DNA from: Kiritimatiellia bacterium
GTDB lineage: Bacteria > Verrucomicrobiota > Kiritimatiellia > UBA8416 > JABMPJ01
Length of the DNA stretch: 64,000 nt
Assembly: GCA_030745755.1 (NCBI GenBank)
Contig: JASLOA010000007.1
Location: 11,974 to 75,973, forward strand
Direction: 5' to 3'
Shown: positions 1-33,639 of the stretch, piece after piece
Position numbering within the stretch: the stretch's first letter is position 1
Layout: the number at the start of each line of letters is the position of its first letter
Notes under the pieces: generated by a model
Databases searched by the model: none
What the model was told of the DNA's origin: nothing
The model's input: only the letters and a program-made list of their open reading frames with translations
Program-made: the position numbers and the translations under genes

Positions 1-1192
1 CATCCAGCACGGCCAGGGCCGCCGCGGCGCCCGCGCCATCCACGTCGCCCGCGTCCAGAGCCCGGTTGCCATTGTGTACCATGTCGAACAGGGCCGCCAG
101 TGCCTGCGGCATCCCCAGGTCATCCTCCACACCGGCACGAAATCCGTCACGTCCGGCCGCGGCCCAGTCCGGCAGCGAACCCGCTTCGCCTTCAGCCTTC
201 TCGGTGAGACGCGCACGGAACTCATCCAGGCGCCCCAGTGCCGTACGTGCCGCATCGAGGGCCGACAGCGTGAAGTTCAGTTCCTGGCGATAGTGCGCCG
301 ATAGCAGCAGGTAACGGATTTCACGACCGGTATAGCCCTTTTCGACCAGGTCACGCAGCGTGAAGAAATTGCCAAGCGACTTCGCCATCTTCTTGCCGTT
401 CACGCGCAGGTGCTCGCAGTGGAGCCACGTCTGCACAAACGGCTTACCGGTGGCCGCCTCGGCCTGGGCAATCTCGTTCTCGTGGTGCGGAAACATGTTG
501 TCAACGCCCCCGGTATGAATATCAAAGCTCTCGCCGAGGTACTTCATGCTCATGGCCGAGCACTCGATATGCCAGCCCGGGCGGCCGCGACCCCAGGGCG
601 AGTCCCACACCACATCGCCATCGGCCTCGTCCCATGCCTTCCACAGCGCAAAGTCGGCCACGTTGTCCTTTTCGTATTCGTCCTGCGCCACACGGGCGCC
701 CGACTGCAGACCCGAAATGTCGAGATGCGCCAACTTACCGTAGTCGGCGTAGGCACTGACGTTGAAGTAGACCGATCCGTCATCCGACTGGTAGGCCGCT
801 TCATTCTCGAACAGGCGTTCGATCAGGCGGATCATCTCCTCGATATGCTCGGTGGCGGACGGGTAGTGCTCGGCCGGTTCCACACGGAGCGTCTTGAGAT
901 CCTCGAAGAAGGCTTCCTTATAGGGGCGCGTGTAATCATCGAGTGACACCCCGGCCTCGATCGCGCCCCGGATCGTCTTGTCGTCCACATCGGTCAGATT
1001 CATCACCTGCGTGACATCATGGCCTGCGAACGTCAGGACACGCCGCAGGATGTCCTCGAAGATGTAGGCCCGGTAGTTGCCGATGTGGGCGTAGTTGTAG
1101 ACCGTCGGCCCGCACGTATACAGGCCCACCTTGGTGCCGTTCAGTGGCGTAAACGCCTCCACTGCCCGCGACATCGTGTTATAAAGCTTCAT
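1..1192 (-). CDS. cysS: cysteine--tRNA ligase (partial; C-terminus beyond window start)
   Basis: Minus-strand translation from ATG at 1190-1192 reads MKLYNTMSRAVEAFTPLNGTKVGLYTCGPTVYNYAHIGNYRAYIFEDILRR with the class I HIGN motif and a later KMAKS-type motif. The ORF is open to position 1. Confidence 0.9.
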   Translation of the reverse strand, partial: MKLYNTMSRAVEAFTPLNGTKVGLYTCGPTVYNYAHIGNYRAYIFEDILRRVLTFAGHDVTQVMNLTDVDDKTIRGAIEAGVSLDDYTRPYKEAFFEDLKTLRVEPAEHYPSATEHIEEMIRLIERLFENEAAYQSDDGSVYFNVSAYADYGKLAHLDISGLQSGARVAQDEYEKDNVADFALWKAWDEADGDVVWDSPWGRGRPGWHIECSAMSMKYLGESFDIHTGGVDNMFPHHENEIAQAEAATGKPFVQTWLHCEHLRVNGKKMAKSLGNFFTLRDLVEKGYTGREIRYLLLSAHYRQELNFTLSALDAARTALGRLDEFRARLTEKAEGEAGSLPDWAAAGRDGFRAGVEDDLGMPQALAALFDMVHNGNRALDAGDVDGAGAAAALAVLD

Positions 1193-1700
1193 CTGCGCCT
1201 GTTTCCTGTTCTTCCCCTGCCGCCCGACACACCGTCGCGGTTGCCATCACGGCCACTCCCTCAGCGCGTCCCAGCGCGCCCATCTTCTCTACGGTCGTGC
1301 CTTTCACCGACACGCACGACACGTCGACGCCCATCGCTGTCGCCAGGTTGCGGCGCATCGCCGCCACGTGCGGGGCAATCCTGGGCGCCTCGGCAATCAC
1401 CGTGGCATCCACATTGCCGACCAACCACCCGCCATCTGAGAGTCGCGCGCGCACCTGCCGCAGCAGTTCGATGCTGTCGGCGTCCTTCCACTGCGCATCG
1501 CTGTCCGGAAAATGCTGCCCAATATCGCCGTCCGCCACGGCGCCCAGCAGGGCATCCGAGATGGCATGGCAGAGCACATCGGCATCTGAATGGCCCAGCA
1601 ATCCGGCTTCGTGCGGGATGTCCACCCCGCCCAACACCAATCGTCGGCCCACCTCAAAGCGATGCGCATCAAAGCCGATTCCGGTCCTATGATTAAGCAT
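1179..1700 (-). CDS. ispF: 2-C-methyl-D-erythritol 2,4-cyclodiphosphate synthase
   Basis: ORF 1179..1718 (-) contains MLNHRTGIGFDAHRF...GHSDADVLCHA, typical of IspF. Start is probably the Met at 1700; alternatives are 1712 and 1718. The stop overlaps the cysS start by 14 nt, consistent with an ispF-cysS operon. Confidence 0.85.
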   Translation of the reverse strand: MLNHRTGIGFDAHRFEVGRRLVLGGVDIPHEAGLLGHSDADVLCHAISDALLGAVADGDIGQHFPDSDAQWKDADSIELLRQVRARLSDGGWLVGNVDATVIAEAPRIAPHVAAMRRNLATAMGVDVSCVSVKGTTVEKMGALGRAEGVAVMATATVCRAAGEEQETGADEAL

Positions 1701-1738
1701 GTTTGACAGCATACGCAAAGGTGGGTAACACTGACAAC

Positions 1739-2587
1739 ATGAATCAGAAAAGAGCTACATCGAGGAATGGCGGCGAGCCGTTCCCCTGCGACGTTGCCGA
1801 CATTCGTCGGCCTGTCTCACTCCGTTCGGCTGTGCCGCAGGAAACAGAGATCTCTGCCTCCCACGACGCAAGGTCGTGGGGGAGCAAGGCTGCGGCCCTT
1901 CGCCTGACTTGGATACTGGGCGTGCTGCTTGTTCTGTGTGCGCTCCCGGCCTCTGCTGCCCCGATCCCCAAGGCCCTTCGCCAGACCACCTTTGTGGCGT
2001 TTGATGTGGAGACGACGGGATTGAGTGCGGCGAAGGACCGTGTCATTGAGATTGGGGCGGTCAAGGTGCGGGCAGGACGGATCATCGGGCGCCAGGTATG
2101 GTTGATCAACCCGGGCCGGCCCATTCCCTATGCCACGACGCGTGTTCACGGCCTCACCGACGAGGATGTCGCCGAGGCGCCGAGTTTCAGAGACGTCTAT
2201 TCCGAATTTGTTGCTTTCGTGAAAGGCGCCATTCTCGTGGCACACAATGCGGGATTCGATGTGCGTTTCATGGCACACGAGGCGCAGCGCAACGACCTGC
2301 CTTTCCCGCCCGAACCGGTGTTGGATAATCTGCGCCTGGCGCGGAAGTGGTGGCCGGAGCTGGAGAGCCACAGCTTGAAGCCTGTCGCCGAGCACCTCAA
2401 AATCGAATCCGGGCGCTACCACCGCGCGCTGGACGATTCGGGAGCACTGGCCAAGGTCTTCACCATCGGCCTGCGTCAGATGCCGGCAGACACCACGGTC
2501 AGCAACCTGCTGGAAGCTGCCGGCAGTCCGCTATACATCAAGGGCGCTATTCCGCTGGATGGCGCAGGCACAAAGACCGCGCGTTGA
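1739..2587 (+). CDS. DnaQ-like (DEDDh) 3'-5' exonuclease with N-terminal hydrophobic segment
   Basis: Motifs FVAFDVETTGL (ExoI), HNAGFDVRF (ExoII) and YHRALDDS (ExoIII). An N-terminal segment LRLTWILGVLLVLCALPASAAP looks like a signal peptide or TM anchor. Start is uncertain (1703 or 1739). Confidence 0.7.
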   Translation: MNQKRATSRNGGEPFPCDVADIRRPVSLRSAVPQETEISASHDARSWGSKAAALRLTWILGVLLVLCALPASAAPIPKALRQTTFVAFDVETTGLSAAKDRVIEIGAVKVRAGRIIGRQVWLINPGRPIPYATTRVHGLTDEDVAEAPSFRDVYSEFVAFVKGAILVAHNAGFDVRFMAHEAQRNDLPFPPEPVLDNLRLARKWWPELESHSLKPVAEHLKIESGRYHRALDDSGALAKVFTIGLRQMPADTTVSNLLEAAGSPLYIKGAIPLDGAGTKTAR

Positions 2588-3331
2588 GGCGGTAATAAAG
2601 GCGGCAAACTCGCTGGCCGGCCCTTCGGGGAAGAGCTCCTCCAGCCGATCCTTGGCCTGTGATGCGTTGAACCCCGAGAGAAAGAGCACTTTGAACGCGC
2701 GCTGCACAGCCTTGCGCTCCTCAAAGGACATGCCCGAACGGCGCATGCCGACCACGTTCAAGCCGATGACCGTATTGTGTTCCGCATTTTTGAGCATACA
2801 GAAAGGCGGTACGTCCTTGGTGGCGACAGCCCCCCCGCCCAGCATCGCCAGCCGGCCGATCTTCACAAACTGATGCACGCCCACGTTGCCGCTGACGAAC
2901 GCGCGCTCGCCTACTTCCACGTACCCGGCCAGCAGCGCGCCGTTGGCCAGGATCACGTTGTTGGCCAACACCACGTTGTGGGCCAGGTGAGAGAACGCCA
3001 TCAGGAAACACTCATCGCCGACAACCGTCTCGGAGCCCTCCTCCGTGCCGCGATGAATGGTCACGCCTTCACGGATAACGCAGTCGTTGCCAATGGCCAC
3101 GCTCGAGGATGTGTTCTTGAAACCCACATCCTGTGGCGTATCGCCCAACACCGCACCGGCATGCACCTCGCAGCCACTGCCCATGGTGACGGATCCGAAA
3201 ATCGTGGCCTGGGGCCCGATGGTGCAGCCGTCGCCGATTACCGCGCCATCCATAATACAGGTAAAGGGACCGACCTCGACGTTGGTTCCCAGTTCCGCGC
3301 CTTTGTCAATTACAGCCGTCTCATGAATCAT
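2531..3331 (-). CDS. lpxA: acyl-ACP--UDP-N-acetylglucosamine O-acyltransferase
   Basis: 266 aa beginning MIHETAVIDKGAELGTNVEVGPFTCI, with left-handed beta-helix hexapeptide repeats; typical LpxA N-terminus and length. Confidence 0.85.
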   Translation of the reverse strand: MIHETAVIDKGAELGTNVEVGPFTCIMDGAVIGDGCTIGPQATIFGSVTMGSGCEVHAGAVLGDTPQDVGFKNTSSSVAIGNDCVIREGVTIHRGTEEGSETVVGDECFLMAFSHLAHNVVLANNVILANGALLAGYVEVGERAFVSGNVGVHQFVKIGRLAMLGGGAVATKDVPPFCMLKNAEHNTVIGLNVVGMRRSGMSFEERKAVQRAFKVLFLSGFNASQAKDRLEELFPEGPASEFAAFITASTRGLCACAIQRNSALDV

Positions 3332-3387: not shown

Positions 3388-3460
3388 GTCATTCCGAGCG
3401 AAGCCGAGGAATCTCCGCCCTATCGACGAGGCAGAGATCCCTCGGCAAGCTCGGGATGAC
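3388..3460. repeat. REP/MITE-like palindromic element (copy a)
   Basis: GTCATTCCGAGCGAAGCCGAGGAATCTC ...17 nt... GAGATCCCTCGGCAAGCTCGGGATGAC. The two 28-bp arms are inverted copies. Intergenic between lpxA and radC. Confidence 0.6.
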
Positions 3461-3567
3461 CGTCACCTGCTCTTTTCCCGTAAGTGTCTATGCCCATGAG
3501 CCAACCGGCTTGCCGGTGGCTTCCTCGGGATGACGCACCCGTAACAGAAAGCAATGATGACACTCCC

Positions 3568-4314
3568 CTAGAATGCTACCAATCCCTCTTCTCGCATACT
3601 CATAAATGCCCGGCCGGAATCGTGTCCCGGTCGTCCCAGAACCACATGGTCGAGCACCTTAATATCGACAATCTTGCCCGCATCAATCAGTTGGCGCGTG
3701 ATACGGATGTCTTCGGCTGATGGCGTGGGATCACCCGACGGGTGATTGTGCGCCAGCACCACGGCCGCCGCGGATGATCGTACGGCCTCTCTGAAGATCT
3801 CACGGGGATGCACCAGGCTTGCATTGAGCAGCCCCTGTGTCACAGCCTTCGGCCGGCCCTTGGCCACGTTCTTGGCATTCAGGTGCACCACCCAGAACAC
3901 CTCCGATTCCAGCGTGCGCACGCGCGGCCCCAGCAGCGATGCCACGTCCTCGGGTGTCCGCACCACGGCGTCGCCGGGCAAGGCTTCATCGTGCAGTCTG
4001 CGTCCTGTCTCAAGTGCGGCCTTAAGCAGAATGGCCTTGGTCCGCCCCACTCCCTTGAAGGCCATCAACTCGTCGATCGATGCGGCAGCCAACGCTGTCA
4101 GCGATCCGTCATAGTGCTTCAGCATGCCGCGGGCCAGGTCGACGACATTGAGGCCCTGCGACCCGCTGCCCAGCAGGATTGCCAGCAGCATATCATCGGT
4201 CACATTCTCTTCGCCCACACGCTCCATGGCCTCGCGCGGCCGAAGCTGGGCGGGGATATCCCGCACCTGCCAGCGGCTTGGCTCGATCACGTAGGCTATG
4301 TTGCTGTCCGTACT
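3568..4314 (-). CDS. radC: RadC-family JAMM/MPN domain protein
   Basis: Has HTH-like GSGSQGLNVVDLARGMLKHYGSL, a JAMM motif HNHPSGDPTPSAED and a C-terminal HVVLGR. GTG start at 4314 overlaps the miaA stop. Confidence 0.8.
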   Translation of the reverse strand, partial: STDSNIAYVIEPSRWQVRDIPAQLRPREAMERVGEENVTDDMLLAILLGSGSQGLNVVDLARGMLKHYDGSLTALAAASIDELMAFKGVGRTKAILLKAALETGRRLHDEALPGDAVVRTPEDVASLLGPRVRTLESEVFWVVHLNAKNVAKGRPKAVTQGLLNASLVHPREIFREAVRSSAAAVVLAHNHPSGDPTPSAEDIRITRQLIDAGKIVDIKVLDHVVLGRPGHDSGRAFMSMREEGLVAF

Positions 4315-5246
4315 CACTCCACAATCCCGGTTGGGCCCTGCCGGTCCCACTGTGCCCACACGGCCTCAGCGAGATCGACCACACTAGTATCGGCTGTTAC
4401 ATCTATCCACTCGACCGCCGCCTGTGTGCGCAGCCAGGTACGCTGTCGCTTGGCCAGTTGGCGTGTACGCGTGGCGGTCCGTTCAATGGCCTCTTCCTGC
4501 GAACACTGCCCCTTCAGCAGCGCTATGGCCTCTGCATAGCCGATCGCCTGGCGGGCCGTCCTGGACATGCCGGACTCGCTCAACAGCAGGCCACGCACTT
4601 CGTCCAACAGCCCCTGACCATACATGGCCCGCACGCGCTGCTCAATCCTCGACTTCAGCAGGTCCGGGTCCACCTTGAGCGCCGCCATGGGCGTGCTATC
4701 GACCTCTCGGTTCCAGTTGCGGGGCGGGGCCTCGAGACCCGCGGCCGCCCATTCAAGGAAGCGCACCAATCGCCGCCCGTTGTCGGGATCATCAATGGCT
4801 TCGTACAAGGAAGGGCTCTGCTCTTTCAGCGCCGCTGCCAGCGGGGCCACCCCCTCCTCTGCGAGGATGCCTTCCCAGTGCGAGCGCAGGGTCGGATCGG
4901 GACCGGGTGCATCGGCAAATCCGTGTGTTAGCGCCTTGAGATAGAGCCCGGTACCCCCCACCACAATGGCGCGGCGTCCCCTCTTCTCGATCTCGGCCAG
5001 CGACTTGAGGGCATACGCGCGGTACTGCCAGCTGTTGAACGTCTCGGCGGCGGACGCCAGGTCGATGCCATGGTACGGCACCGTGCCACGCTCCTCCGGT
5101 GTGGGTTTGGCCGTGCCGATATCCATTCCGCGGTAGATCAACATCGAATCGGCCGACAGAATCTCAAGGCCGTGCTGTGCAGCCAGTTGATGGGCCATTG
5201 CGGTCTTGCCCGAGGCCGTAGGGCCCGCCAGAAAATAGGCTTCCAT
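4314..5246 (-). CDS. miaA: tRNA dimethylallyltransferase
   Basis: P-loop GPTASGKT near the N-terminus and 310 aa MiaA-like sequence throughout. Confidence 0.9.
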   Translation of the reverse strand: MEAYFLAGPTASGKTAMAHQLAAQHGLEILSADSMLIYRGMDIGTAKPTPEERGTVPYHGIDLASAAETFNSWQYRAYALKSLAEIEKRGRRAIVVGGTGLYLKALTHGFADAPGPDPTLRSHWEGILAEEGVAPLAAALKEQSPSLYEAIDDPDNGRRLVRFLEWAAAGLEAPPRNWNREVDSTPMAALKVDPDLLKSRIEQRVRAMYGQGLLDEVRGLLLSESGMSRTARQAIGYAEAIALLKGQCSQEEAIERTATRTRQLAKRQRTWLRTQAAVEWIDVTADTSVVDLAEAVWAQWDRQGPTGIVE

Positions 5247-5254
5247 GCTCCACC

Positions 5255-5779
5255 TCAGTCGCCGGTTGCCGGCGCAGCGTCGGGGCCGGGTGCTTCCACG
5301 ACTTCGTCAGCCCCGGCCTGCCCCGGCCAGATCTGAGTCAGGATATAGAGTCCCACGCCCACGCAGATCGCGGAATCAGCCACATTGAAGGCCGGAAAAT
5401 GATGATTGCTAATGCGTTTCAGCCAGTAGAAATCAATAAAGTCCACCACGTAACCCAGCCGTACGCGGTCGATCAGGTTGCCGACAATGCCACCAATCAT
5501 GAGGGCCGTGGCACAGCGATGCACCAGGGAATCGGTCATGATCGACCGGCGGAACACCACCAGCACAACCAGCATCACCAACGAGATAAGGACCAGCCAG
5601 TGGCTGAACCCCGCCAACATGCCCCAGGCCGCACCTGTGTTGCGAATGTAGTGAAAGTCGAGAAGACGCGGAATGACTTGAACGTAGTCGCCCACGTGAA
5701 AGCGCTGCTGGACCAGGGTCTTGGTGGCCTGGTCCAGAAACGCAATCGCGAAACTCAACCATAAGATCAGCATGCGCAC
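5255..5779 (-). CDS. lspA: lipoprotein signal peptidase II
   Basis: 174 aa polytopic membrane protein with conserved NTGAAWG and FNVAD motifs. Confidence 0.85.
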   Translation of the reverse strand: MRMLILWLSFAIAFLDQATKTLVQQRFHVGDYVQVIPRLLDFHYIRNTGAAWGMLAGFSHWLVLISLVMLVVLVVFRRSIMTDSLVHRCATALMIGGIVGNLIDRVRLGYVVDFIDFYWLKRISNHHFPAFNVADSAICVGVGLYILTQIWPGQAGADEVVEAPGPDAAPATGD

Positions 5780-5832
5780 TCCCTCGGTGTCGCCAGTATC
5801 CCATTGCAGAACTGCTTCTGTGCAACGGGTGT

Positions 5833-5904
5833 GTCATCCCGAGCGAAGTCGAGGGATCTCTGCTCCGACATGAATATGAGATTCCTCGCTTCGCTCGGAA
5901 TGAC
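5833..5904. repeat. REP/MITE-like palindromic element (copy b)
   Basis: GTCATCCCGAGCGAAGTCGAGGGATCTC ...spacer... GAGATTCCTCGCTTCGCTCGGAATGAC. Same family as 3388-3460. Confidence 0.6.
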
Positions 5905-5945
5905 AAAGACTCACATAGTTTGAAAGATTGCCTGCGTGGCAGGTC

Positions 5946-6869
5946 CTAGTCAATCGTAATGGGCGGACGGTAGCCGGGGCGGTGTTTCTCGACCTCGGAC
6001 TGGCACGAGATGCAGTTCTGGACAAAGGGAAGCGCCTTGAGCCGGGCCTTCTCGATGCCGCCACCACACTCATGACACTTGCCGTACGACCCTTCTTCGA
6101 TGCGCTTGAGGGCAACGTCAATCGCGATCAGGGCCTCGTTCTCCGAGCTCGCCAGGTTAAGGGCGAACTGGCGATCGAACGCGTCAGTTCCATCTTCCTC
6201 GATGTTGACCTCGTCCGCACGCGTGAGGGATTCACTCTTGAGCGATTTGATCTGGCCGGCGATACGGTCACGTATATCGAGAAGCTGGAGACGGTACTTC
6301 TCCCTCTGCTTCGCGCCCATAGCGCGGTAGCCACGCGGCTTCACAGTGTGATTGTTCGACTTCTTACGTCCGGGGCGCAGGACCTCGATCTTCTGGGGAG
6401 TCACTTTCGGGCGGGGAGCGAGCGGATCGTTTTCCAGTGTCTTCTTCTTGCGACGGGCACGCTTCCTCGGTGCCGGCCCCTTTACAGCAGCGTCCTTCTC
6501 CGGAGCCGCCTTTTTTCCCTCCGTAGCTTTAGCGGAAGAGGGCTTCTTCGCAGCAGACTTCTTCGCGGGAGCCTTCTTCGCGGCAGGCTTCTTCGCGGCA
6601 GGTTTCTTCGCAGCAGCCTTCTTAGCGGGAGCCTTCTTAACTGCCTTCTTAACTGCCTTCTTCGGGGTCGCCTTCTTCGGGGTCGCCTTCTTGGACGCAG
6701 CCTTTTTACCCGCCGTAGCTTTAGCGGAGGAGGGCTTCTTGGGAGCGCTCTTCTTTGCGGACTTCTTCGCTGGCTTCCTGGGAGCTGGTTTCGACACCTT
6801 CTTCTTGGCCTTGGTTGCTACCTTCTTCTTGGTCGTCGTGCGCTTGGCGCTACTCTTCTTGGCTGGCAT
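5946..6869 (-). CDS. DksA/TraR C4 zinc-finger protein with histone-H1-like Lys/Ala-rich N-terminal tail
   Basis: Start Met at 6869 (MPAKKSSAKR..., RBS GGAGA). About 200 aa of AKK/PKK repeats, then a coiled-coil and the DksA-type zinc finger CHECGGGIEKARLKALPFVQNCISC. Confidence 0.75.
   Translation of the reverse strand: MPAKKSSAKRTTTKKKVATKAKKKVSKPAPRKPAKKSAKKSAPKKPSSAKATAGKKAASKKATPKKATPKKAVKKAVKKAPAKKAAAKKPAAKKPAAKKAPAKKSAAKKPSSAKATEGKKAAPEKDAAVKGPAPRKRARRKKKTLENDPLAPRPKVTPQKIEVLRPGRKKSNNHTVKPRGYRAMGAKQREKYRLQLLDIRDRIAGQIKSLKSESLTRADEVNIEEDGTDAFDRQFALNLASSENEALIAIDVALKRIEEGSYGKCHECGGGIEKARLKALPFVQNCISCQSEVEKHRPGYRPPITID
6480..6800. repeat. tandem 12-15-bp and ~50-bp direct repeats inside the DksA-like gene
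   Basis: Reiterated gccttcttcgc(g/a)g(c/g)ag units encoding the AKKA/PAKK repeats. A ~50-bp duplication appears near 6507 and 6700. Confidence 0.6.
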
Positions 6870-7050
6870 TCTCGTCTCCCCGTCTGAATTTGAGTGCGGG
6901 AAGCTATCATAGCCGCTACAGGCTGTCAACACATGGTGCTCAGCGTCTTTGGGCCGCCTTTTTGCCTCTCGCCAGTCCAATTTCCTTGTCCGCTGCGAAA
7001 CACAGGTGCTAGGGTCTCCGTTTTCCACAGATCGATGGAGAAGCCGACTT

Positions 7051-8595
7051 ATGGAACACGACGACTGGATCGCCATACTTGATTTCGGGTCGCAGTACAG
7101 CCAGCTTATTGCCCGCCGTATCCGCGAGCAGAAAGTCTATTCCGAGCTGCTGCGTTTTGACACCACGGCCGAAGAGCTGCGCAAGCGTAAACCGGCCGGC
7201 ATCGTTCTCTCGGGCGGACCGTCCAGTGTCTTCGACGATGAAGCCCCGCAGTGTGATCCCGCCCTTTTCGATATGGGCATTCCGGTCCTCGGCATCTGTT
7301 ACGGCATGCAGCTCACGGCCCGCACCCTGGGCGGCGATGTAAAACCGGGCGAGGCCCGCGAGTACGGACAGGCCACGATTGAAATCGTCGACCACGCATC
7401 CATCTTCAGCGACCTGCCTGACGAGGCCACGGTCTGGATGAGCCACGGCGACCAGGTGGCCGCCCTGCCCGACGGCTTCAGGGCATTGGCCCAGACCGGC
7501 ACCTGTCCCTATGCGGCGATGGGCAATGACGAGCGGCGCATCTACGGACTACAGTTTCACCCGGAAGTGGTACACACCCCGCGTGGGGTCGACATCCTGC
7601 GCCATTTTGTCTTCGACGCCTGCGGCTGTGGCGGGACCTGGGAGATGGCCCAGTTCATCAAGAGCAGCGTCGCCGCCATCCGTGAACAGGTCGGCACTGA
7701 GCATGTCGTTCTCGGCCTCAGTGGTGGCGTAGACTCCTCCGTTGTGGCGGCCCTGCTGCACAAGGCCATCGGCGATCAGCTGCACTGCATCTTTGTCGAC
7801 AATGGCGTGCTGCGCTACAGGGAGTCCGAACAGGTTGAGCACATGTTTGGCGAGACATTCGGCATGGACCTGCACGTCGTCGACGCCGCCGATCTCTTCC
7901 TCGGCAAGCTGGCAGGGGTTGAAGACCCGGAGAAGAAGCGCAAGATCATCGGCAACACGTTCATCGATGTCTTCGCCGACGAGGCGCGCAAGCTGGGCGA
8001 TGTTAAATACCTCGCCCAGGGAACGCTCTACCCGGACGTCATCGAGAGCTTCTCCCCCATCGGCGGCCCCTCCGCCACGATCAAGAGTCATCACAACGTT
8101 GGTGGGCTCCCGGATGACCTGCATTTTCAGCTGATTGAGCCGGTGCGCGAACTCTTCAAGGATGAAGTGCGCGCGCTGGGGCGTGAATTGGGACTGCCCG
8201 ACCATGTGGTCGATCGCCAGCCCTTCCCGGGCCCCGGCCTGGCTGTACGTATCGTGGGCGAAGTCACCGCTGAACGCGTGGCCCTGCTCCAGCAAGCCGA
8301 CTTGCGTATTCTCGAAGAGCTGGCCACGCTGCCCGATCACAAAGATATCTGGCAATCGTTCGGGGTACTCCTGCCGGTCCAGAGCGTAGGTGTCATGGGC
8401 GACAGCCGCACCTACGAGAATGTCCTCGCCGTGCGCGCGGTCTCCAGCAAAGACGGCATGACCGCCGACTGGTTCAAGGTGTCGTACGATTGCCTGGGCC
8501 GGATCTCCAACCGCATCATCAACGAAGTCCGCGGCATCAACCGCGTCGTCTACGACATCAGCTCCAAGCCGCCCGCCACGATTGAGTGGGAATAG
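7051..8595 (+). CDS. guaA: GMP synthase (glutamine-hydrolysing)
   Basis: [23 protein letters not shown]..., GATase catalytic Cys in GICYGMQ, PP-loop SGGVDSSV, and a C-terminal IEWE. RBS GGAG upstream of ATG at 7051. Confidence 0.9.
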
Positions 8596-8748: not shown

Positions 8749-9393
8749 ATGGGACGCGATAGCCTTAGTTTGGCGGATCAGGCTTACGAATTGCTGGAAG
8801 CGAGGATCGTGAGTTTGGAGTTGGTGCCGGGCGAGATCTATTCCGAGGCGGAGCTGAGTGCGCTGATCGGGGTCGGTCGAACCCCCATGCGGGAGGGGTT
8901 GCTGCGGTTGGCCAAGGAGAAGCTGGTTGAGATGATTCCGCGGCGGGGAGTGGGTGTGACCCGGATCGACCTGACGCGGCATGTGCCGCTCCTGGAGACG
9001 CGCAAGGCTTTGGATGTGCTGATTGCGACGCGCGCGGCGCGGCGCGTTACGGCGGCGCAGAAGGAGTGGTTATCGACGTCTGCGGACGCGATCCTGGAGG
9101 CGGCGCAGCGCGGGGATACCGATGCGTTTCACGCGATCGATGAGGCGTTGGATGCTTTGCTGGGGGAGGCCTGCAACAACCCCTTCGCGGTGGAAGCGGT
9201 GGCCCATCTTTACGCGCATTGCAGGCGGTTCTGGGTCCACTATGGGGAGCATGTTGACGTGCTGCTGCTGGCTCGGCAGCACGCGGCCCTGATGCAGGCG
9301 GTGGCAGGGGGCGATGAGAGCGAAGCCCGAGAGGCCGTGGAGGCCATTATTGACTATCAGATTGAGTTCACGCGATTGGCGCTGGACTTGTAG
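8749..9393 (+). CDS. GntR-family (FadR/FCD-type) transcriptional regulator
   Basis: N-terminal winged HTH (LELVPGEIYSEAELSALIGVGRTPMREGL) and a C-terminal FCD-like helical domain. Sits upstream of the GRE operon. Confidence 0.8.
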   Translation: MGRDSLSLADQAYELLEARIVSLELVPGEIYSEAELSALIGVGRTPMREGLLRLAKEKLVEMIPRRGVGVTRIDLTRHVPLLETRKALDVLIATRAARRVTAAQKEWLSTSADAILEAAQRGDTDAFHAIDEALDALLGEACNNPFAVEAVAHLYAHCRRFWVHYGEHVDVLLLARQHAALMQAVAGGDESEAREAVEAIIDYQIEFTRLALDL

Positions 9394-9403
9394 AGGATGA
9401 TGA

Positions 9404-11911
9404 GTGATGCAGACAGACGTACTTGAAACAGTCGTGCCTAAGCGCGGTACCCCCGAACGGGCACCCCAGTCGCAGGGCAATTTCTATGGCGGCGAGGATA
9501 GGCTGACGCAGGAGCGCGCCGGTGATGCCGATCCGCAGGCACCGGGGATGAATGCCCGGATTCAGCGCTTGCGGCAGAAGAGTTTCGAAGCGGAGCCTTC
9601 GCTGGCGATCGAGCGGGCGCTGCACCAGACGGCTTTCTACAAGCTCCACCATGGCAAGTACTCGGTGCCGGTGATGCGGGCGATGACCTTTCTGGATCAT
9701 TGCCGGAAGAAGACCCTCTATTTCGATGCCGATGAACTGATTGTGGGCGAGCGTGGTCCGGCCCCCAAGGCGGTGCCGACCTTTCCCGAGCTGACCTGTC
9801 ACAGCGTGAAGGATTTTGACGTCCTCAATCACCGCGAGAAGCAGCCCTACAGCATCAGCCAGGCGGACATCGACACCTATGCGCGCGAGGTGATCCCCTA
9901 CTGGAAGGGACGGACCCAGCGCGAGCGAATCTTCGCCCACGTCCCCGATGAGTGGCGCGCGGCCTACGAGGCCGGTTGCTTCACCGAGTTCATGGAGCAG
10001 CGCGCACCGGGACACACCGTGCTCGACGGCAAGCTCTACCGCAAGGGGATGCTGGACTACAAGCGCGAGATCGATGCGCACCTGGAGAGTCTGGACTACA
10101 AGCGGGACGTGGAGGCCAACGACAAGGCCGAGGAACTCAAGGCCATGGCGATCTCCTGCGATGCGGCCATTGTGTTTGCCGAACGCCACGCCGCCTTGCT
10201 GGAGCGCAAGGCCGCCGAACAGAGCGACCCCGACAAGGCGGCGGAGTTGCGAGAGGTCGCTGCGATCTGTCGCCGCGTGCCCGCACACGCCCCCCGGACG
10301 TTTCATGAGGCGGTACAGATGTACTGGTTCTGCCACCTGGGGACGATTACGGAACTGAACGGCTGGGACGCGATGAATCCGGGGCATTTCGATCAGCACC
10401 TGACGCCCTTCTACGAGGCGGAAGTGGCCGCCGGCACGCTCACGCGTGACCGGGCGAAGGAAATTCTCTCCTGTCTGTGGATCAAGGTAAACAACCACAC
10501 GGCGCCGCCGAAGGTGGGCATCACCGCCAAGGAGAGCGGCACCTACAACGATTTCACCAACATCAATATCGGGGGGCTGAAACGCGATGGTTCCGACGGC
10601 GTGAGCGAGGTGTCCTATATCATGCTGGAGCTGATAGAGGACATTCATCTGCTGCAGCCGGGTACCTCTGTGCATGTTAGCGCCAAAACACCGGACGCGT
10701 TCCTGCACGCCGCCTGCAAGGTGATCCGGCAGGGACATGGCTACCCCTCCGTATTCAACCCGGACATCTATATCCAGGAGATGCTGCGCTCGGGCAAGTC
10801 GCTGGAGGATGCGCGCGAGGGCGGCTGCAGCGGCTGCATTGAGGTGGGGGCCTTTGGCAAGGAAGCCTTCCTGCTGACCGGCTACCTCAACGTGCCCAAG
10901 ATCGTGGAGGTAACGCTGAACAATGGTATCGATCCGGAGACGGGGAAGCTAGTGGGCATTGAGACGGGCGACCCGCGGTCGTTTGCCGACTACGAAAGCC
11001 TGTACGAGGCATTCCACAAGCAGTTGGCCTATGTGATCGACCTGAAGATTCGTGTCAGCAACTACATCGACACCATGTTCGCAAAGTATGCACCGGCGCC
11101 CTTCTTGTCGGTGCTGATCGATGACTGCATTGCCAAGGGTCGGGACTACTACAACGCCGGCCCCCGCTACAACACCAACTACATCCAGTGCTGCGGCCTG
11201 GGAACAGCCGCCGATAGTCTGCTGGCGCTCAAGAGGCACGTCTTCGATGATGCCCGCTATTCGATGGATGAGGTCCTGGCCGCCGTGGCTGAGAACTTCG
11301 AGGGTGAGGAGGTCATGCGCCAGACCATACTCAACAAGACCCCCTTCTACGGGAACAACCTGGACTATGCCGATCAGGTTGCCGTGAAGCTCTACGACGA
11401 CCTGGTCGATCTCATCGACGGCGAACCTAACATCAAGGAGGGCGGCCAGTACCACTTGAACATGCTCTCGACCACCTGCCACATCTACTTCGGCAAGGTG
11501 ATGGGTGCCACGCCCAACGGCCGCCTGGCACACAAATCCATCTCCGACGGCACCTCGCCATCCCACGGCGCCGACCAGCGCGGACCCTCGGCGGTGGTTC
11601 AGTCGCTGGGAAAACTCGATCAGATCCAATCGGGCGGCACGCTGCTGAACCTGCGATTTCTACCGAGCCTGCTGAAGCGTGACGAGGATATCACGAAGTT
11701 GGGGCACCTGATCCGGAGCTACTTCGTCCAGGGCGGGCATCATGTCCAATTCAACATCGTCGATACCGCGACCTTGCGCGCCGCGCAGCGCACGCCCGAG
11801 GATTACAAGGACCTGTTGGTGCGGATGGCCGGCTACAGCGACTATTTCAATGACATGAACGGCGATCTGCAACAGGAAGTAATCGACCGCACGGAAAACG
11901 AATCCTTCTAG
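9404..11911 (+). CDS. glycyl radical enzyme, trans-4-hydroxy-L-proline dehydratase-like (HypD-like)
   Basis: C-terminal glycyl radical motif RMAGYSDYF and a GCSGC Cys loop. EFMEQRAPGHTV, PPKVGIT and N-terminal AEPSLAIERA resemble HypD as I recall it. Start is uncertain (9404 or the Met at 9548). Confidence 0.8.
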   Translation: MMQTDVLETVVPKRGTPERAPQSQGNFYGGEDRLTQERAGDADPQAPGMNARIQRLRQKSFEAEPSLAIERALHQTAFYKLHHGKYSVPVMRAMTFLDHCRKKTLYFDADELIVGERGPAPKAVPTFPELTCHSVKDFDVLNHREKQPYSISQADIDTYAREVIPYWKGRTQRERIFAHVPDEWRAAYEAGCFTEFMEQRAPGHTVLDGKLYRKGMLDYKREIDAHLESLDYKRDVEANDKAEELKAMAISCDAAIVFAERHAALLERKAAEQSDPDKAAELREVAAICRRVPAHAPRTFHEAVQMYWFCHLGTITELNGWDAMNPGHFDQHLTPFYEAEVAAGTLTRDRAKEILSCLWIKVNNHTAPPKVGITAKESGTYNDFTNINIGGLKRDGSDGVSEVSYIMLELIEDIHLLQPGTSVHVSAKTPDAFLHAACKVIRQGHGYPSVFNPDIYIQEMLRSGKSLEDAREGGCSGCIEVGAFGKEAFLLTGYLNVPKIVEVTLNNGIDPETGKLVGIETGDPRSFADYESLYEAFHKQLAYVIDLKIRVSNYIDTMFAKYAPAPFLSVLIDDCIAKGRDYYNAGPRYNTNYIQCCGLGTAADSLLALKRHVFDDARYSMDEVLAAVAENFEGEEVMRQTILNKTPFYGNNLDYADQVAVKLYDDLVDLIDGEPNIKEGGQYHLNMLSTTCHIYFGKVMGATPNGRLAHKSISDGTSPSHGADQRGPSAVVQSLGKLDQIQSGGTLLNLRFLPSLLKRDEDITKLGHLIRSYFVQGGHHVQFNIVDTATLRAAQRTPEDYKDLLVRMAGYSDYFNDMNGDLQQEVIDRTENESF

Positions 11912-11919
11912 GTGCCACA

Positions 11920-12834
11920 ATGAGTGTTTCCTGCCTCGTGTTTGATACGAAGCGCTACGCCATCAACGATGGTCCCGGCGTCCGCGTGACCATCTTCCTG
12001 AAGGGATGTCCGCTGCGATGCGCCTGGTGCCATAACCCCGAGAGCATCGCCCCGCAGATGGAGAAGATGTACACGCCGGGCAAGTGCATTGGCTGCCTGG
12101 CCTGCATCGAGGCCTGTCCGGAAGACGCGCTGACGATGACGGAGGAGCGTGGTGTGGTCACCGACTTCGAGGCGTGCACGATGTGCGGGCTCTGTGCCGA
12201 GTGCTGTCCGACCGGTGCCATGGAGATGGTCGCCGAGATGACGGATGTGCAGGCGGTGGTCGACGCCGTCCTGGAAGAGCGCGTCATTATCGACCAGTCC
12301 GGAGGGGGCGTGACCTTTTCCGGGGGCGAGCCGTTGATGCATCATCGCTTCCTGATCAAAGCGTTGGAAGCCTGCCGGGCCGAGGGGATTCATTGTACGG
12401 TGGACACATCCGGATTTGCGCCAGGGGAGGTCCTGATGGCGGTGGCCGCGCGGACCGATCACTGGCTCTATGATCTGAAGAGCATGAATCCGGATACCCA
12501 TCTCAGATGGACCGGCGTGCGCAATGAGGTGATCCTGGAGAATCTCACGGCGCTGGCCGAGTCCGGGGCCTCGATCAATATTCGGATCCCTCTGATCGAA
12601 GGGGTCAATGCAGACGACGAGAACATGCGGACGACGGCGGCGTTTGTAAAGGGACTGGCGGGGGAGCCCAAGCAGGTGAATCTGCTGCCCTACCACAAGA
12701 TCGCGGAGAGCAAGTACGCCAAGCTGGGTCGGACGATCGAGCTGGAGGGGATGGCGGAGCCCTCGGAGGAGCGGCTGGCAGAGATTGCCGCCATGTTCAG
12801 CGCAAGCGGTCTCGACGCCACAGTGGGTGGTTGA
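11920..12834 (+). CDS. glycyl-radical enzyme activating enzyme (radical SAM)
   Basis: CPLRCAWCHNPE (Cx3Cx2C) plus two ferredoxin-type clusters, CIGCLACIEACP and CTMCGLCAECCP. Lies immediately downstream of the GRE. Confidence 0.85.
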   Translation: MSVSCLVFDTKRYAINDGPGVRVTIFLKGCPLRCAWCHNPESIAPQMEKMYTPGKCIGCLACIEACPEDALTMTEERGVVTDFEACTMCGLCAECCPTGAMEMVAEMTDVQAVVDAVLEERVIIDQSGGGVTFSGGEPLMHHRFLIKALEACRAEGIHCTVDTSGFAPGEVLMAVAARTDHWLYDLKSMNPDTHLRWTGVRNEVILENLTALAESGASINIRIPLIEGVNADDENMRTTAAFVKGLAGEPKQVNLLPYHKIAESKYAKLGRTIELEGMAEPSEERLAEIAAMFSASGLDATVGG

Positions 12835-23077: not shown

Positions 23078-23152
23078 GGAGATCCCTCGACTTCGCTCGG
23101 GATGACCGTTTCCTAAGGATTCTTGTCATGCCGAGCGAAGCCGAGGCATCTC
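23078..23152. repeat. REP/MITE-like palindromic element (copy c, halves in swapped order)
   Basis: GAGATCCCTCGACTTCGCTCGGGATGAC ...spacer... GTCATGCCGAGCGAAGCCGAGGCATCTC. Confidence 0.55.
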
Positions 23153-33086: not shown

Positions 33087-33377
33087 ATGAGATACGAGTG
33101 GAATCCCGAGAAGAATGATGCTCTCAAGCGCGAGCGCAACATCTCGTTTGAGCAGATCGTCTTTCATTTGTCGCAAGGCGACGTGTGGAAGACTGCCGAT
33201 CATCCGAATCAGGATCAGTATCCCGGGCAGAAACTGTATTTCGTGAATGTGGAAGGCTATATCCACATTGTCCCCCATGTCGTGGAGGATGAGTATGTGT
33301 TTCTGAAGACGATCATCCCCAGCCGGAAGGCAACACGGGACTTTCAGAAAGAAGGTGAGCAGAATGAAAATGGATAA
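33087..33377 (+). CDS. brnT: BrnT-family (DUF497) toxin
   Basis: MRYEWNPEKNDALKRERNISFEQ... A palindrome CGTCTCATGAGATACG spans the start. Confidence 0.75.
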   Translation: MRYEWNPEKNDALKRERNISFEQIVFHLSQGDVWKTADHPNQDQYPGQKLYFVNVEGYIHIVPHVVEDEYVFLKTIIPSRKATRDFQKEGEQNENG

Positions 33378-33639
33378 AGAAGAGAGAGAGATCCTTGACG
33401 CATACGACAAGGGTAAGCTGAAACTCTCGTCTCCCTCCAAAAAGGAGCGAGACAAGATACAGTCCATGGCAGAGCAGACTTTCCGGAAAGACCGCAGAGT
33501 CACTATTCGTCTCTACGACCATGACCTCAAGGGTGTCCAGAAGAAGGCCATGGAGAAGGGCATGCCCTACCAAACCCTTATCTCGGCCATGATCCACCAA
33601 TATGTCGAAGGCGACCTTGTCGAAAGACAAGTCGGCTAA
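33355..33639 (+). CDS. brnA: BrnA-family antitoxin
   Basis: ...RVTIRLYDHDLKGVQKKAMEKGMPYQTLISAMIHQY, typical of BrnA. Confidence 0.7.
   Translation: MSRMKMDKEEREILDAYDKGKLKLSSPSKKERDKIQSMAEQTFRKDRRVTIRLYDHDLKGVQKKAMEKGMPYQTLISAMIHQYVEGDLVERQVG

Follow-up and report, generated by a model that had tools for sequence, protein, structure and literature searches.

We describe a gene on the minus strand (5946..6869) of a 64,000-nucleotide (nt) stretch of contig JASLOA010000007.1 from a Kiritimatiellia bacterium; the whole stretch is called the window below. The gene encodes a protein of 307 amino acids (aa) in three parts, namely a polycationic, histone-H1-like tail (residues 1-145), a basic linker (146-184) and a module of the DksA/TraR superfamily (185-307). 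It is an lspA-linked dksA-like gene of the Planctomycetes-Verrucomicrobia-Chlamydiae (PVC) superphylum with a tail like that of DdbA from Streptomyces coelicolor, the protein with which this architecture was already published. Across Lentisphaerota and Kiritimatiellia, the tailed form is the standard form of this gene. The initial annotation, made from the sequence alone, had described a DksA-type finger fused to an H1-like tail of about 200 aa. The fusion is real and is translated from the upstream ATG, and the length was roughly right, as tail and basic linker together make an extension of 184 aa. In current databases such genes are annotated merely as "TraR/DksA family transcriptional regulator".

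The reading frame and its start

The coding sequence is complete (307 aa and the stop codon), and the exact protein is called on six contigs. The DNA of the four contigs shown, two from metagenomes of the Joint Genome Institute (JGI) and two from NCBI metagenome-assembled genomes (MAGs; GCA_030749005.1 and GCA_030744355.1), is 100% identical to the window. Direct reading of the sequence shows a Shine-Dalgarno-like GGGGAG (6876..6881, minus strand) 6 nt 5' of the ATG at 6869, and the N-terminus MPAKK(S/T)(S/T)A.R.TT.KK is common to close homologues. The sole in-frame methionine between the repeats and the core is M184, which lies just upstream of the core and is replaced by leucine, isoleucine or another residue in relatives. 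The GC content at third codon positions is 0.69 in the tail, versus 0.74-0.78 in the neighbouring genes.

The initial annotation had allowed for two ways in which it could be mistaken, a frameshift or sequencing artefact in the repeat region and a true start downstream of the repeats. Both were rejected. An assembly artefact or frameshift is ruled out by the identity of the sequence in four assemblies and by the frame, which is kept open across about 60 related genomes. An internal start at M184 as the main form is also rejected, since this methionine is not conserved, and the ribosome-binding site and the shared N-terminus belong to the ATG at 6869. We further rejected a longer open reading frame (ORF) from the ATG at 7076 (376 aa); its additional 69 aa are non-basic and are absent from the homologues, which begin with MPAKK, and it overlaps the promoter region of the divergent guaA gene.

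Tail, repeats and length variation

The tail (6435..6869, minus strand) contains 52 lysines, 38 alanines and 16 prolines with only 3 acidic residues, which gives a pI of 11.9 and a net charge of about +54. The sequence is made up of K/A/P/S/T-rich xxAKK or xPKK units: it begins with MPAKK SSAKRTTTKK and later reads ATPKK ATPKK AVKK AVKK APAKK AAAKK PAAKK PAAKK APAKK SAAKK. In an AlphaFold2 (AF2) model built from a 44-sequence alignment, residues 1-180 are without secondary structure at a predicted local distance difference test (pLDDT) value of about 50, and are thus predicted to be disordered. When all six frames of the window were searched, this was the only lysine-rich alanine/proline repeat tract, so it does not reflect a genome-wide compositional habit. 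The only further stretch of 30 aa with 8 lysines (33367-33456, plus strand) is acidic and of mixed charge.

The resemblance to H1- and Hc2-type repeats, which the initial annotation had proposed, is borne out as a pattern. The Pfam HC2 profile (PF07382) gave 35.1 bits with the full protein and 27.9 bits with the tail alone, both below the cut-off of 40, and the match disappeared in 8 of 8 residue shuffles. Therefore, the likeness to Hc2 lies in the spacing of the KK pairs as well as in the composition. The score with NF038053, the Burkholderia H1-like DNA-binding protein, was 32.8, below the equivalog cut-off of 80. With both scores under their cut-offs, we do not treat the tail as a homologue of Hc2 or of the Burkholderia protein, and regard the similarity as one of repeat pattern.

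At the DNA level, the core of the tail is a tandem-repeat array (6543..6692, minus strand) that encodes approximately residues 60-109. Tandem Repeats Finder reported a 15-bp period of 6.4 copies at 6543-6638 (85% matches), a perfect 12-bp period of 2.7 copies at 6631-6662 and a perfect 15-bp period of 2.5 copies at 6655-6692. A degenerate 15-nt register (60-81% identity in a gap-free repeat-family search) spans 6462-6729. The repeat-family search also gave a 75-nt direct repeat on the minus strand, of which the downstream copy, flanking the array (6494..6568), encodes PAKKSAAKKPSSAKATEGKKAAPEK and the upstream copy (6686..6760) encodes SAKKSAPKKPSSAKATAGKKAASKK; the two are 81% identical and 192 nt apart. 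The tandem repeats that had been claimed for 6480-6800 are thus real, but they are narrower and more degenerate than was claimed, since DNA of high identity is confined to about 150 nt at 6543-6692 and the longest perfect tandem runs are merely 32-38 nt.

A search with the linker and core returned 142 proteins, nearly all with basic N-terminal tails; the few with names are from Lentisphaerae, Kiritimatiellia or Verrucomicrobiota. In a profile search of 1.84 billion representatives (clusters at 50% identity, threshold E <= 1e-30), 154 clusters matched the core profile. Among the best 150 of these 154 cluster representatives, the median N-terminal extension is 94 aa, and the extension reaches at least 20 aa in 140, at least 100 aa in 71 and at least 150 aa in 24. 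Lysine and arginine together make up at least 20% of 134 of these 140 extensions, and the median content of aspartate and glutamate is 2%. A scan of species-representative genomes gave 60 loci, whose taxa, where assigned, are Lentisphaerota, Kiritimatiellia, "Verrucomicrobia" or PVC-group MAGs (for example, L030 is from a MAG assigned to Victivallis vadensis); a few carry only the label "uncultured bacterium". In 59 of the 60 loci the lspA gene lies 2-157 nt 3' of the dksA-like gene, and in 49 of the 60 it is followed by miaA. Hence, the protein is not the special DksA "variant" that the initial annotation took it to be; with an extension of at least 20 aa in 140 of the best 150 representatives, it has the form that is normal in its clade. 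Our literature search found no paper on a tailed DksA in PVC bacteria.

Between distant members the tails cannot be aligned, and their lengths run from about 0 to 230 aa; in 10 of the 150 representatives the extension is shorter than 20 aa, some of these being truncated gene calls. Such turnover, like the repetitive DNA and the position of M184 immediately before the conserved core, would be expected if the tail were neutral, low-complexity sequence driven by slippage, or if it were left untranslated by a start at M184, so that only the core of 124 aa mattered. However, the composition of the tail is strongly conserved, as the lysine, arginine and acidic contents given above show, and a composition preserved while the sequence turns over marks a disordered polycation under selection. 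The frame is open in about 60 genomes, a ribosome-binding site precedes the ATG at 6869 and the N-terminus is shared by close species, whereas M184 is unconserved and the third-position GC of the tail is close to that of the neighbours. We therefore regard a neutral or untranslated tail as very improbable.

The initial annotation had predicted slippage in the repeats and a repeat number that differs between strains. For the species of the window, all contigs recovered are 100% identical to the window, and the metagenome scan gave nothing closer to it than 77%. Relative to the homologue P0001, whose core is 91% identical, the window tail has 38 additional aa, and the gaps lie inside the repeat region. 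Furthermore, the proteins P0062 and P0066 have 100% identical cores and are separated by a single indel of 10 aa, corresponding to two AKKPx pentapeptides.

A database search with the tail alone gave one significant match, which led to P0252, a tailed, one-cysteine DksA/TraR protein of a group whose named members come from Acidimicrobiales MAGs. With the 127-aa core of P0252 as the query, we found 94 distinct proteins (P0252-P0345) in which this core is 100% identical. The tails, of 47 to 107 aa, differ from one another in xxAKK units of 4-5 aa, with the caveat that short-read assembly of repeats can yield some false variants among such length alleles. The N-terminus is MATAKKAV in 90 of the 94, and 6 of the 94 are from 2.8-Mb contigs. 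This set is a case of extreme strain-level repeat-number polymorphism. Two of its members, P0270 and P0336, have locally frameshifted tails, e.g. HLPRSPWRRRPAKK, which reflect either indel errors of long reads in the repeat or frameshifts that the tail tolerates. Thus the slippage prediction holds at the level of the protein class, in the 10-aa indel between P0062 and P0066 and in the tail-length alleles of the 94 Acidimicrobiales proteins, and in this class the repeat copy number of related genomes varies at short evolutionary distance.

The DksA/TraR module and its proposed action

The C-terminal module (residues 185-307) is mildly acidic, with a pI of 5.8. Residues 186-259 (6093..6314, minus strand) form a two-helix coiled coil with the acidic tip R217-x-D219...E225-D226-G227-T228-D229-A-F-D232-R-Q234, as judged from the AF2 model and the conserved columns. 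They are followed by a C4 zinc finger at residues 260-295 (5985..6092, minus strand), which matches Pfam zf-dskA_traR (PF01258; E 1.2e-10, 41.6 bits, above the cut-off of 24.9) with the spacing CxxC-x17-CxxC (C265, C268, C286 and C289). The helices 186-216 and 227-259 and the finger were modelled with pLDDT above 90 in the DksA fold. The top 8 matches in a Foldseek search against the PDB were all DksA or DksA2, among them Pseudomonas aeruginosa DksA2 (4ijj; root-mean-square deviation 2.0 Å, template modelling score 0.75 on the target). The others included E. coli DksA in complexes with RNA polymerase (RNAP; 7khi_M and 5vsw_M) and alone (1tjl), as well as Chlamydia DksA (6ptg). The nearest PDB protein by sequence is Chlamydia DksA (E 8e-12), with which the tip motif GTDxFDR is held in common. 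Over the 44 family members the tip E-D-G-T-D-A-F-D-R-Q is invariant or near-invariant, and is the most conserved stretch of the family.

The second finger cysteine is lost in some members of the clade: L029, L038 and L061 have G(I/V)CE(T/M)S, L029 and L038 reading GICETSG, and in L037 the sequence as shown stops at GTCE. The loss in L029, L037, L038 and L061 parallels the zinc-free, one-cysteine finger of Chlamydia DksA.

We consider it somewhat better than an even chance that this is a bifunctional, DdbA-like protein, the core of which docks in the secondary channel of RNAP while the polycationic tail binds DNA non-specifically. The C-terminal 123 residues would bind RNAP with the coiled coil inserted in the secondary channel, as in E. 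coli DksA and TraR, and this insertion would modulate transcription initiation. The disordered tail of about 145 residues and about +54 charges would bind DNA by charge, like the C-terminal domain of H1, Hc2 and the N-terminus of DdbA. It would thereby hold the factor at the nucleoid, and might also bridge or condense DNA close to the transcribing polymerase. The tail evolves as units of 4-5 residues are added or lost in frame, with its composition kept. We infer the binding to RNAP from the similarity of the fold, and the nucleoid association and DNA binding only by analogy; the coupling of the two activities, and any role of ppGpp, are likewise predicted.

Several points weigh against this proposal. 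The NCBIfam DksA equivalogs all remained far under their cut-offs (TIGR02420, 51.1 vs 115.5; NF033459, 54.8 vs 105; PRK10778, 30.7 vs 289), and we therefore assign the module to the DksA/TraR superfamily; it is not a canonical DksA. In one register the tip motif D229-A-F-D232-R-Q234 is DxxDxQ, not the DxxDxA formed by D71, D74 and A76 in E. coli, and the HMMER register pairs D71 and D74 of E. coli DksA with D219 and N222, followed by a 5-residue insertion. Residues R91, K94 and K98 of E. coli DksA, which we take to be the basic residues of ppGpp site 2, correspond to N244, a gap and A249 in the HMMER alignment, and for this reason ppGpp dependence is doubtful. Chlamydia DksA, the nearest solved relative, does not complement an E. 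coli dksA mutant (PMC9126822). As for the tail, polycationic sequences also bind RNA, polyphosphate and acidic lipids. What had been called a canonical DksA C4 finger is thus indeed a C4 DksA/TraR module with the DksA fold, but the word canonical does not stand, as the scores below the equivalog cut-offs show.

The failure at the equivalog cut-offs, the lack of conservation of the tip motif and of the ppGpp-contact positions in the HMMER alignment, the Chlamydia complementation result and the loss of finger cysteines in L029, L038 and L037 could also be explained by a protein that has the DksA fold but does not regulate RNAP through the secondary channel in the manner of E. coli DksA, and that the tail makes mainly nucleoid-structuring. 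Such a protein may be ppGpp-independent like TraR, may sense redox state or zinc, or may have a role tied to the lspA-miaA operon. However, it is the acidic tip, EDGTDxF[DE]RQ, that is most conserved, as expected of an element close to the catalytic centre, and the fold superposes on the RNAP-bound DksA of 7khi_M. We consider this explanation improbable.

A second alternative leaves the core as proposed and gives the tail another polyanionic ligand, such as polyphosphate granules, rRNA or mRNA, or acidic membrane lipids, for localisation or regulated turnover. The tail has no sequence-specific DNA-binding fold in the AF2 model, and the gene is co-transcribed with lspA, which encodes a membrane enzyme. 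The H1-like Pseudomonas protein AlgP reportedly acts on the spacing of polyphosphate granules (PMC9239181), and lysine-rich sequences bind polyphosphate non-covalently (PMC12077175). Nevertheless, in DdbA, the one tested protein of the same architecture, the tail binds DNA and condenses it (PMC3643593). The xPKK/xAKK spacing agrees with that of the DNA-binding repeats of H1 and Hc2 and the match is lost on shuffling, and a factor that acts on RNAP is expected at the DNA. We thus think it unlikely that DNA is not the main ligand of the tail.

If the tail does tether the factor to DNA, the control of transcription and the structure of the chromosome would be coupled in one polypeptide, in which an RNAP secondary-channel factor of a universal type is permanently fused to a histone-H1-like polycation; this would bear on how active chromatin is organised in bacteria without classical histones. 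A more far-reaching possibility, which we offer tentatively and hold to be doubtful, is that the tailed DksA is a major nucleoid-associated protein that ties secondary-channel control of RNAP to local DNA compaction or condensates. The fusion would then have arisen at least twice independently, in the PVC clade and in the Actinomycetota (DdbA of Streptomyces and the Acidimicrobiales proteins), and tail length would serve as a tunable, contingency-like dial of DNA affinity between strains. The recurrence of tailed DksA proteins in unrelated phyla is in itself probable. The length-hypervariable tails offer a natural allelic series for studying how function is tuned by the length of a disordered polycation.

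Linker, gene neighbourhood and known systems

The basic, non-repetitive linker (residues 146-184; 6318..6434, minus strand) carries the motif NDPLAPRPK...VLRPGRKK, which is conserved in the closest sub-clade; the columns invariant among 8 relatives are D148, P149, L150, P152, V163, R165, P166, G167, R168 and K170. In the form NDPLxPRPK...VLRPGRKK, the motif is invariant in the closest relatives (P0001-P0005, L005-L008 and P0121) and absent from the rest of the clade. It could represent a short linear motif for interaction. A different module between tail and core, KSPFSHTDHxxIF..ARKAAAxAK, is conserved in the sub-clade of L043, L048, L049, L055, P0170 and P0173, and a third group (L012 and P0150) has ..RKVIAAAARTSH.RAVS..TE.D..ALESISVIR at this place. 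The region between tail and core thus appears to be modular across the clade.

The gene order in the window, with the dksA-like gene first and then lspA and miaA, is that of the relatives. The conserved downstream partner lspA encodes signal peptidase II (5255..5779, minus strand; Pfam Peptidase_A8, E 4e-38; the JGI call starts at 5773), and the third gene of the conserved cluster, miaA, encodes tRNA isopentenyltransferase (4314..5246, minus strand; Pfam IPPT, E 1e-65). The spacer between the dksA-like gene and lspA is 172 nt long in the window, versus 12-16 nt in the closest relatives. It contains an inverted-repeat hairpin like a repetitive extragenic palindromic (REP) element at 5833..5904, which is part of the transcription unit and is not conserved in relatives; the folding energy of the spacer around it is -75 kcal/mol (z = -6.25). 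The hairpin is made of a 27-28-nt unit, GTCATNCCGAGCGAAG(N)CGAGGNATCTC, that occurs in five copies in the window (chance expectation none), at 3388-3415 (+), 5833-5860 (+), 5878-5904 (-), 23079-23106 (-) and 23125-23152 (+). At 5833-5904 and 23079-23152 the copies pair into long hairpins within intergenic spacers. The unit is absent from the loci of the 60 relatives and looks like a genome-specific REP-like element, which has widened the dksA-lspA spacer here, from roughly 12-16 nt to 172 nt. A scan of 5200-7300 gave no Rfam match and no minus-strand terminator; therefore, the spacer hairpin is neither a known RNA nor a canonical terminator.

Beyond the divergent guaA, at approximately 8950-12830, the window has genes for a GntR/FCD regulator, a glycyl-radical enzyme similar to pyruvate formate-lyase and its radical S-adenosylmethionine activase. 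This region matches L002 at 36-3322 and 3477-4121 in reversed orientation, and the glycyl-radical enzyme is called with 834 aa in one assembly and with 787 aa in another.

Several known proteins share one or other part of this architecture. E. coli DksA and TraR (1TJL, 7KHI and 6N57) have the same fold of coiled coil and C4 finger and the same CxxC-x17-CxxC spacing. They are only about 25% identical to the window protein, which has the 184-aa basic extension and, at the tip, DxxDxQ or a 5-residue insertion. DksA of Chlamydia trachomatis (CT407, PDB 6PTG) is the closest solved homologue, matches in fold, belongs to the same PVC superphylum and has the same order of dksA followed by lspA; in every chlamydial genome analysed, lspA is directly 3' of dksA (PMC9126822). 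However, its chain is of 132 aa and aligns from residue 34-35, which leaves no room for a tail of comparable length. Furthermore, its finger is one-cysteine and zinc-free instead of C4, and its operon is nrdR-dksA-lspA, whereas here it is dksA-lspA-miaA.

As for the tail, chlamydial Hc2/HctB (PF07382), AlgP, the Burkholderia H1-like protein (NF038053) and the C-terminal tails of HupS/MDP1 share the pattern of A, P, S and T spaced by KK, and in Hc2 the number of lysine-rich pentamers also varies between strains (PMC2848022). In contrast to the present protein, these stand alone or are fused to HU, not to DksA. The Acidimicrobiales proteins of the P0252 group share both the tail with DksA/TraR architecture and the hypervariable copy number of the tail. 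Profile comparison shows their core to be homologous to that of the PVC proteins (hhalign 97.7%, 38% identity over 61 columns), and BLASTP gave no alignment of a P0252-group protein to the window protein. They differ in the one-cysteine finger and in the gene context of yggT, divIVA, X and a pseudouridine synthase (L114, 1621-2325); on the one contig seen, no lspA adjoins the tailed gene.

The closest published parallel is DdbA (SCO2075), the "Dks-like DNA-binding protein" of Streptomyces coelicolor described by Aldridge et al. in 2013 (PMC3643593). Its N-terminal H1-like, lysine-rich domain shifts supercoiled and linear DNA in electrophoretic mobility shift assays and condenses DNA in atomic force microscopy, whereas its DksA-like C-terminal domain, with a C4 finger and two tip aspartates, does not bind or condense DNA (PMC3643593). 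Overexpression of DdbA suppresses a relA phenotype, and the tail differs in length among streptomycetes, the only organisms in which orthologues were found (PMC3643593). Like the window gene, DdbA combines an H1-like tail with a DksA-like core and, by locus tag, also lies next to lsp, which is SCO2074 (PMC4941574). It differs in coming from another phylum and in its basic domain of about 93-138 aa with 5 repeats, versus 145 aa and about 20 KK units here, and the shared adjacency to lsp is the only link that points toward orthology. With the present proteins, the design known as a curiosity of Streptomyces extends to poorly studied PVC bacteria, where it is clade-wide, and to the abundant Acidimicrobiales.

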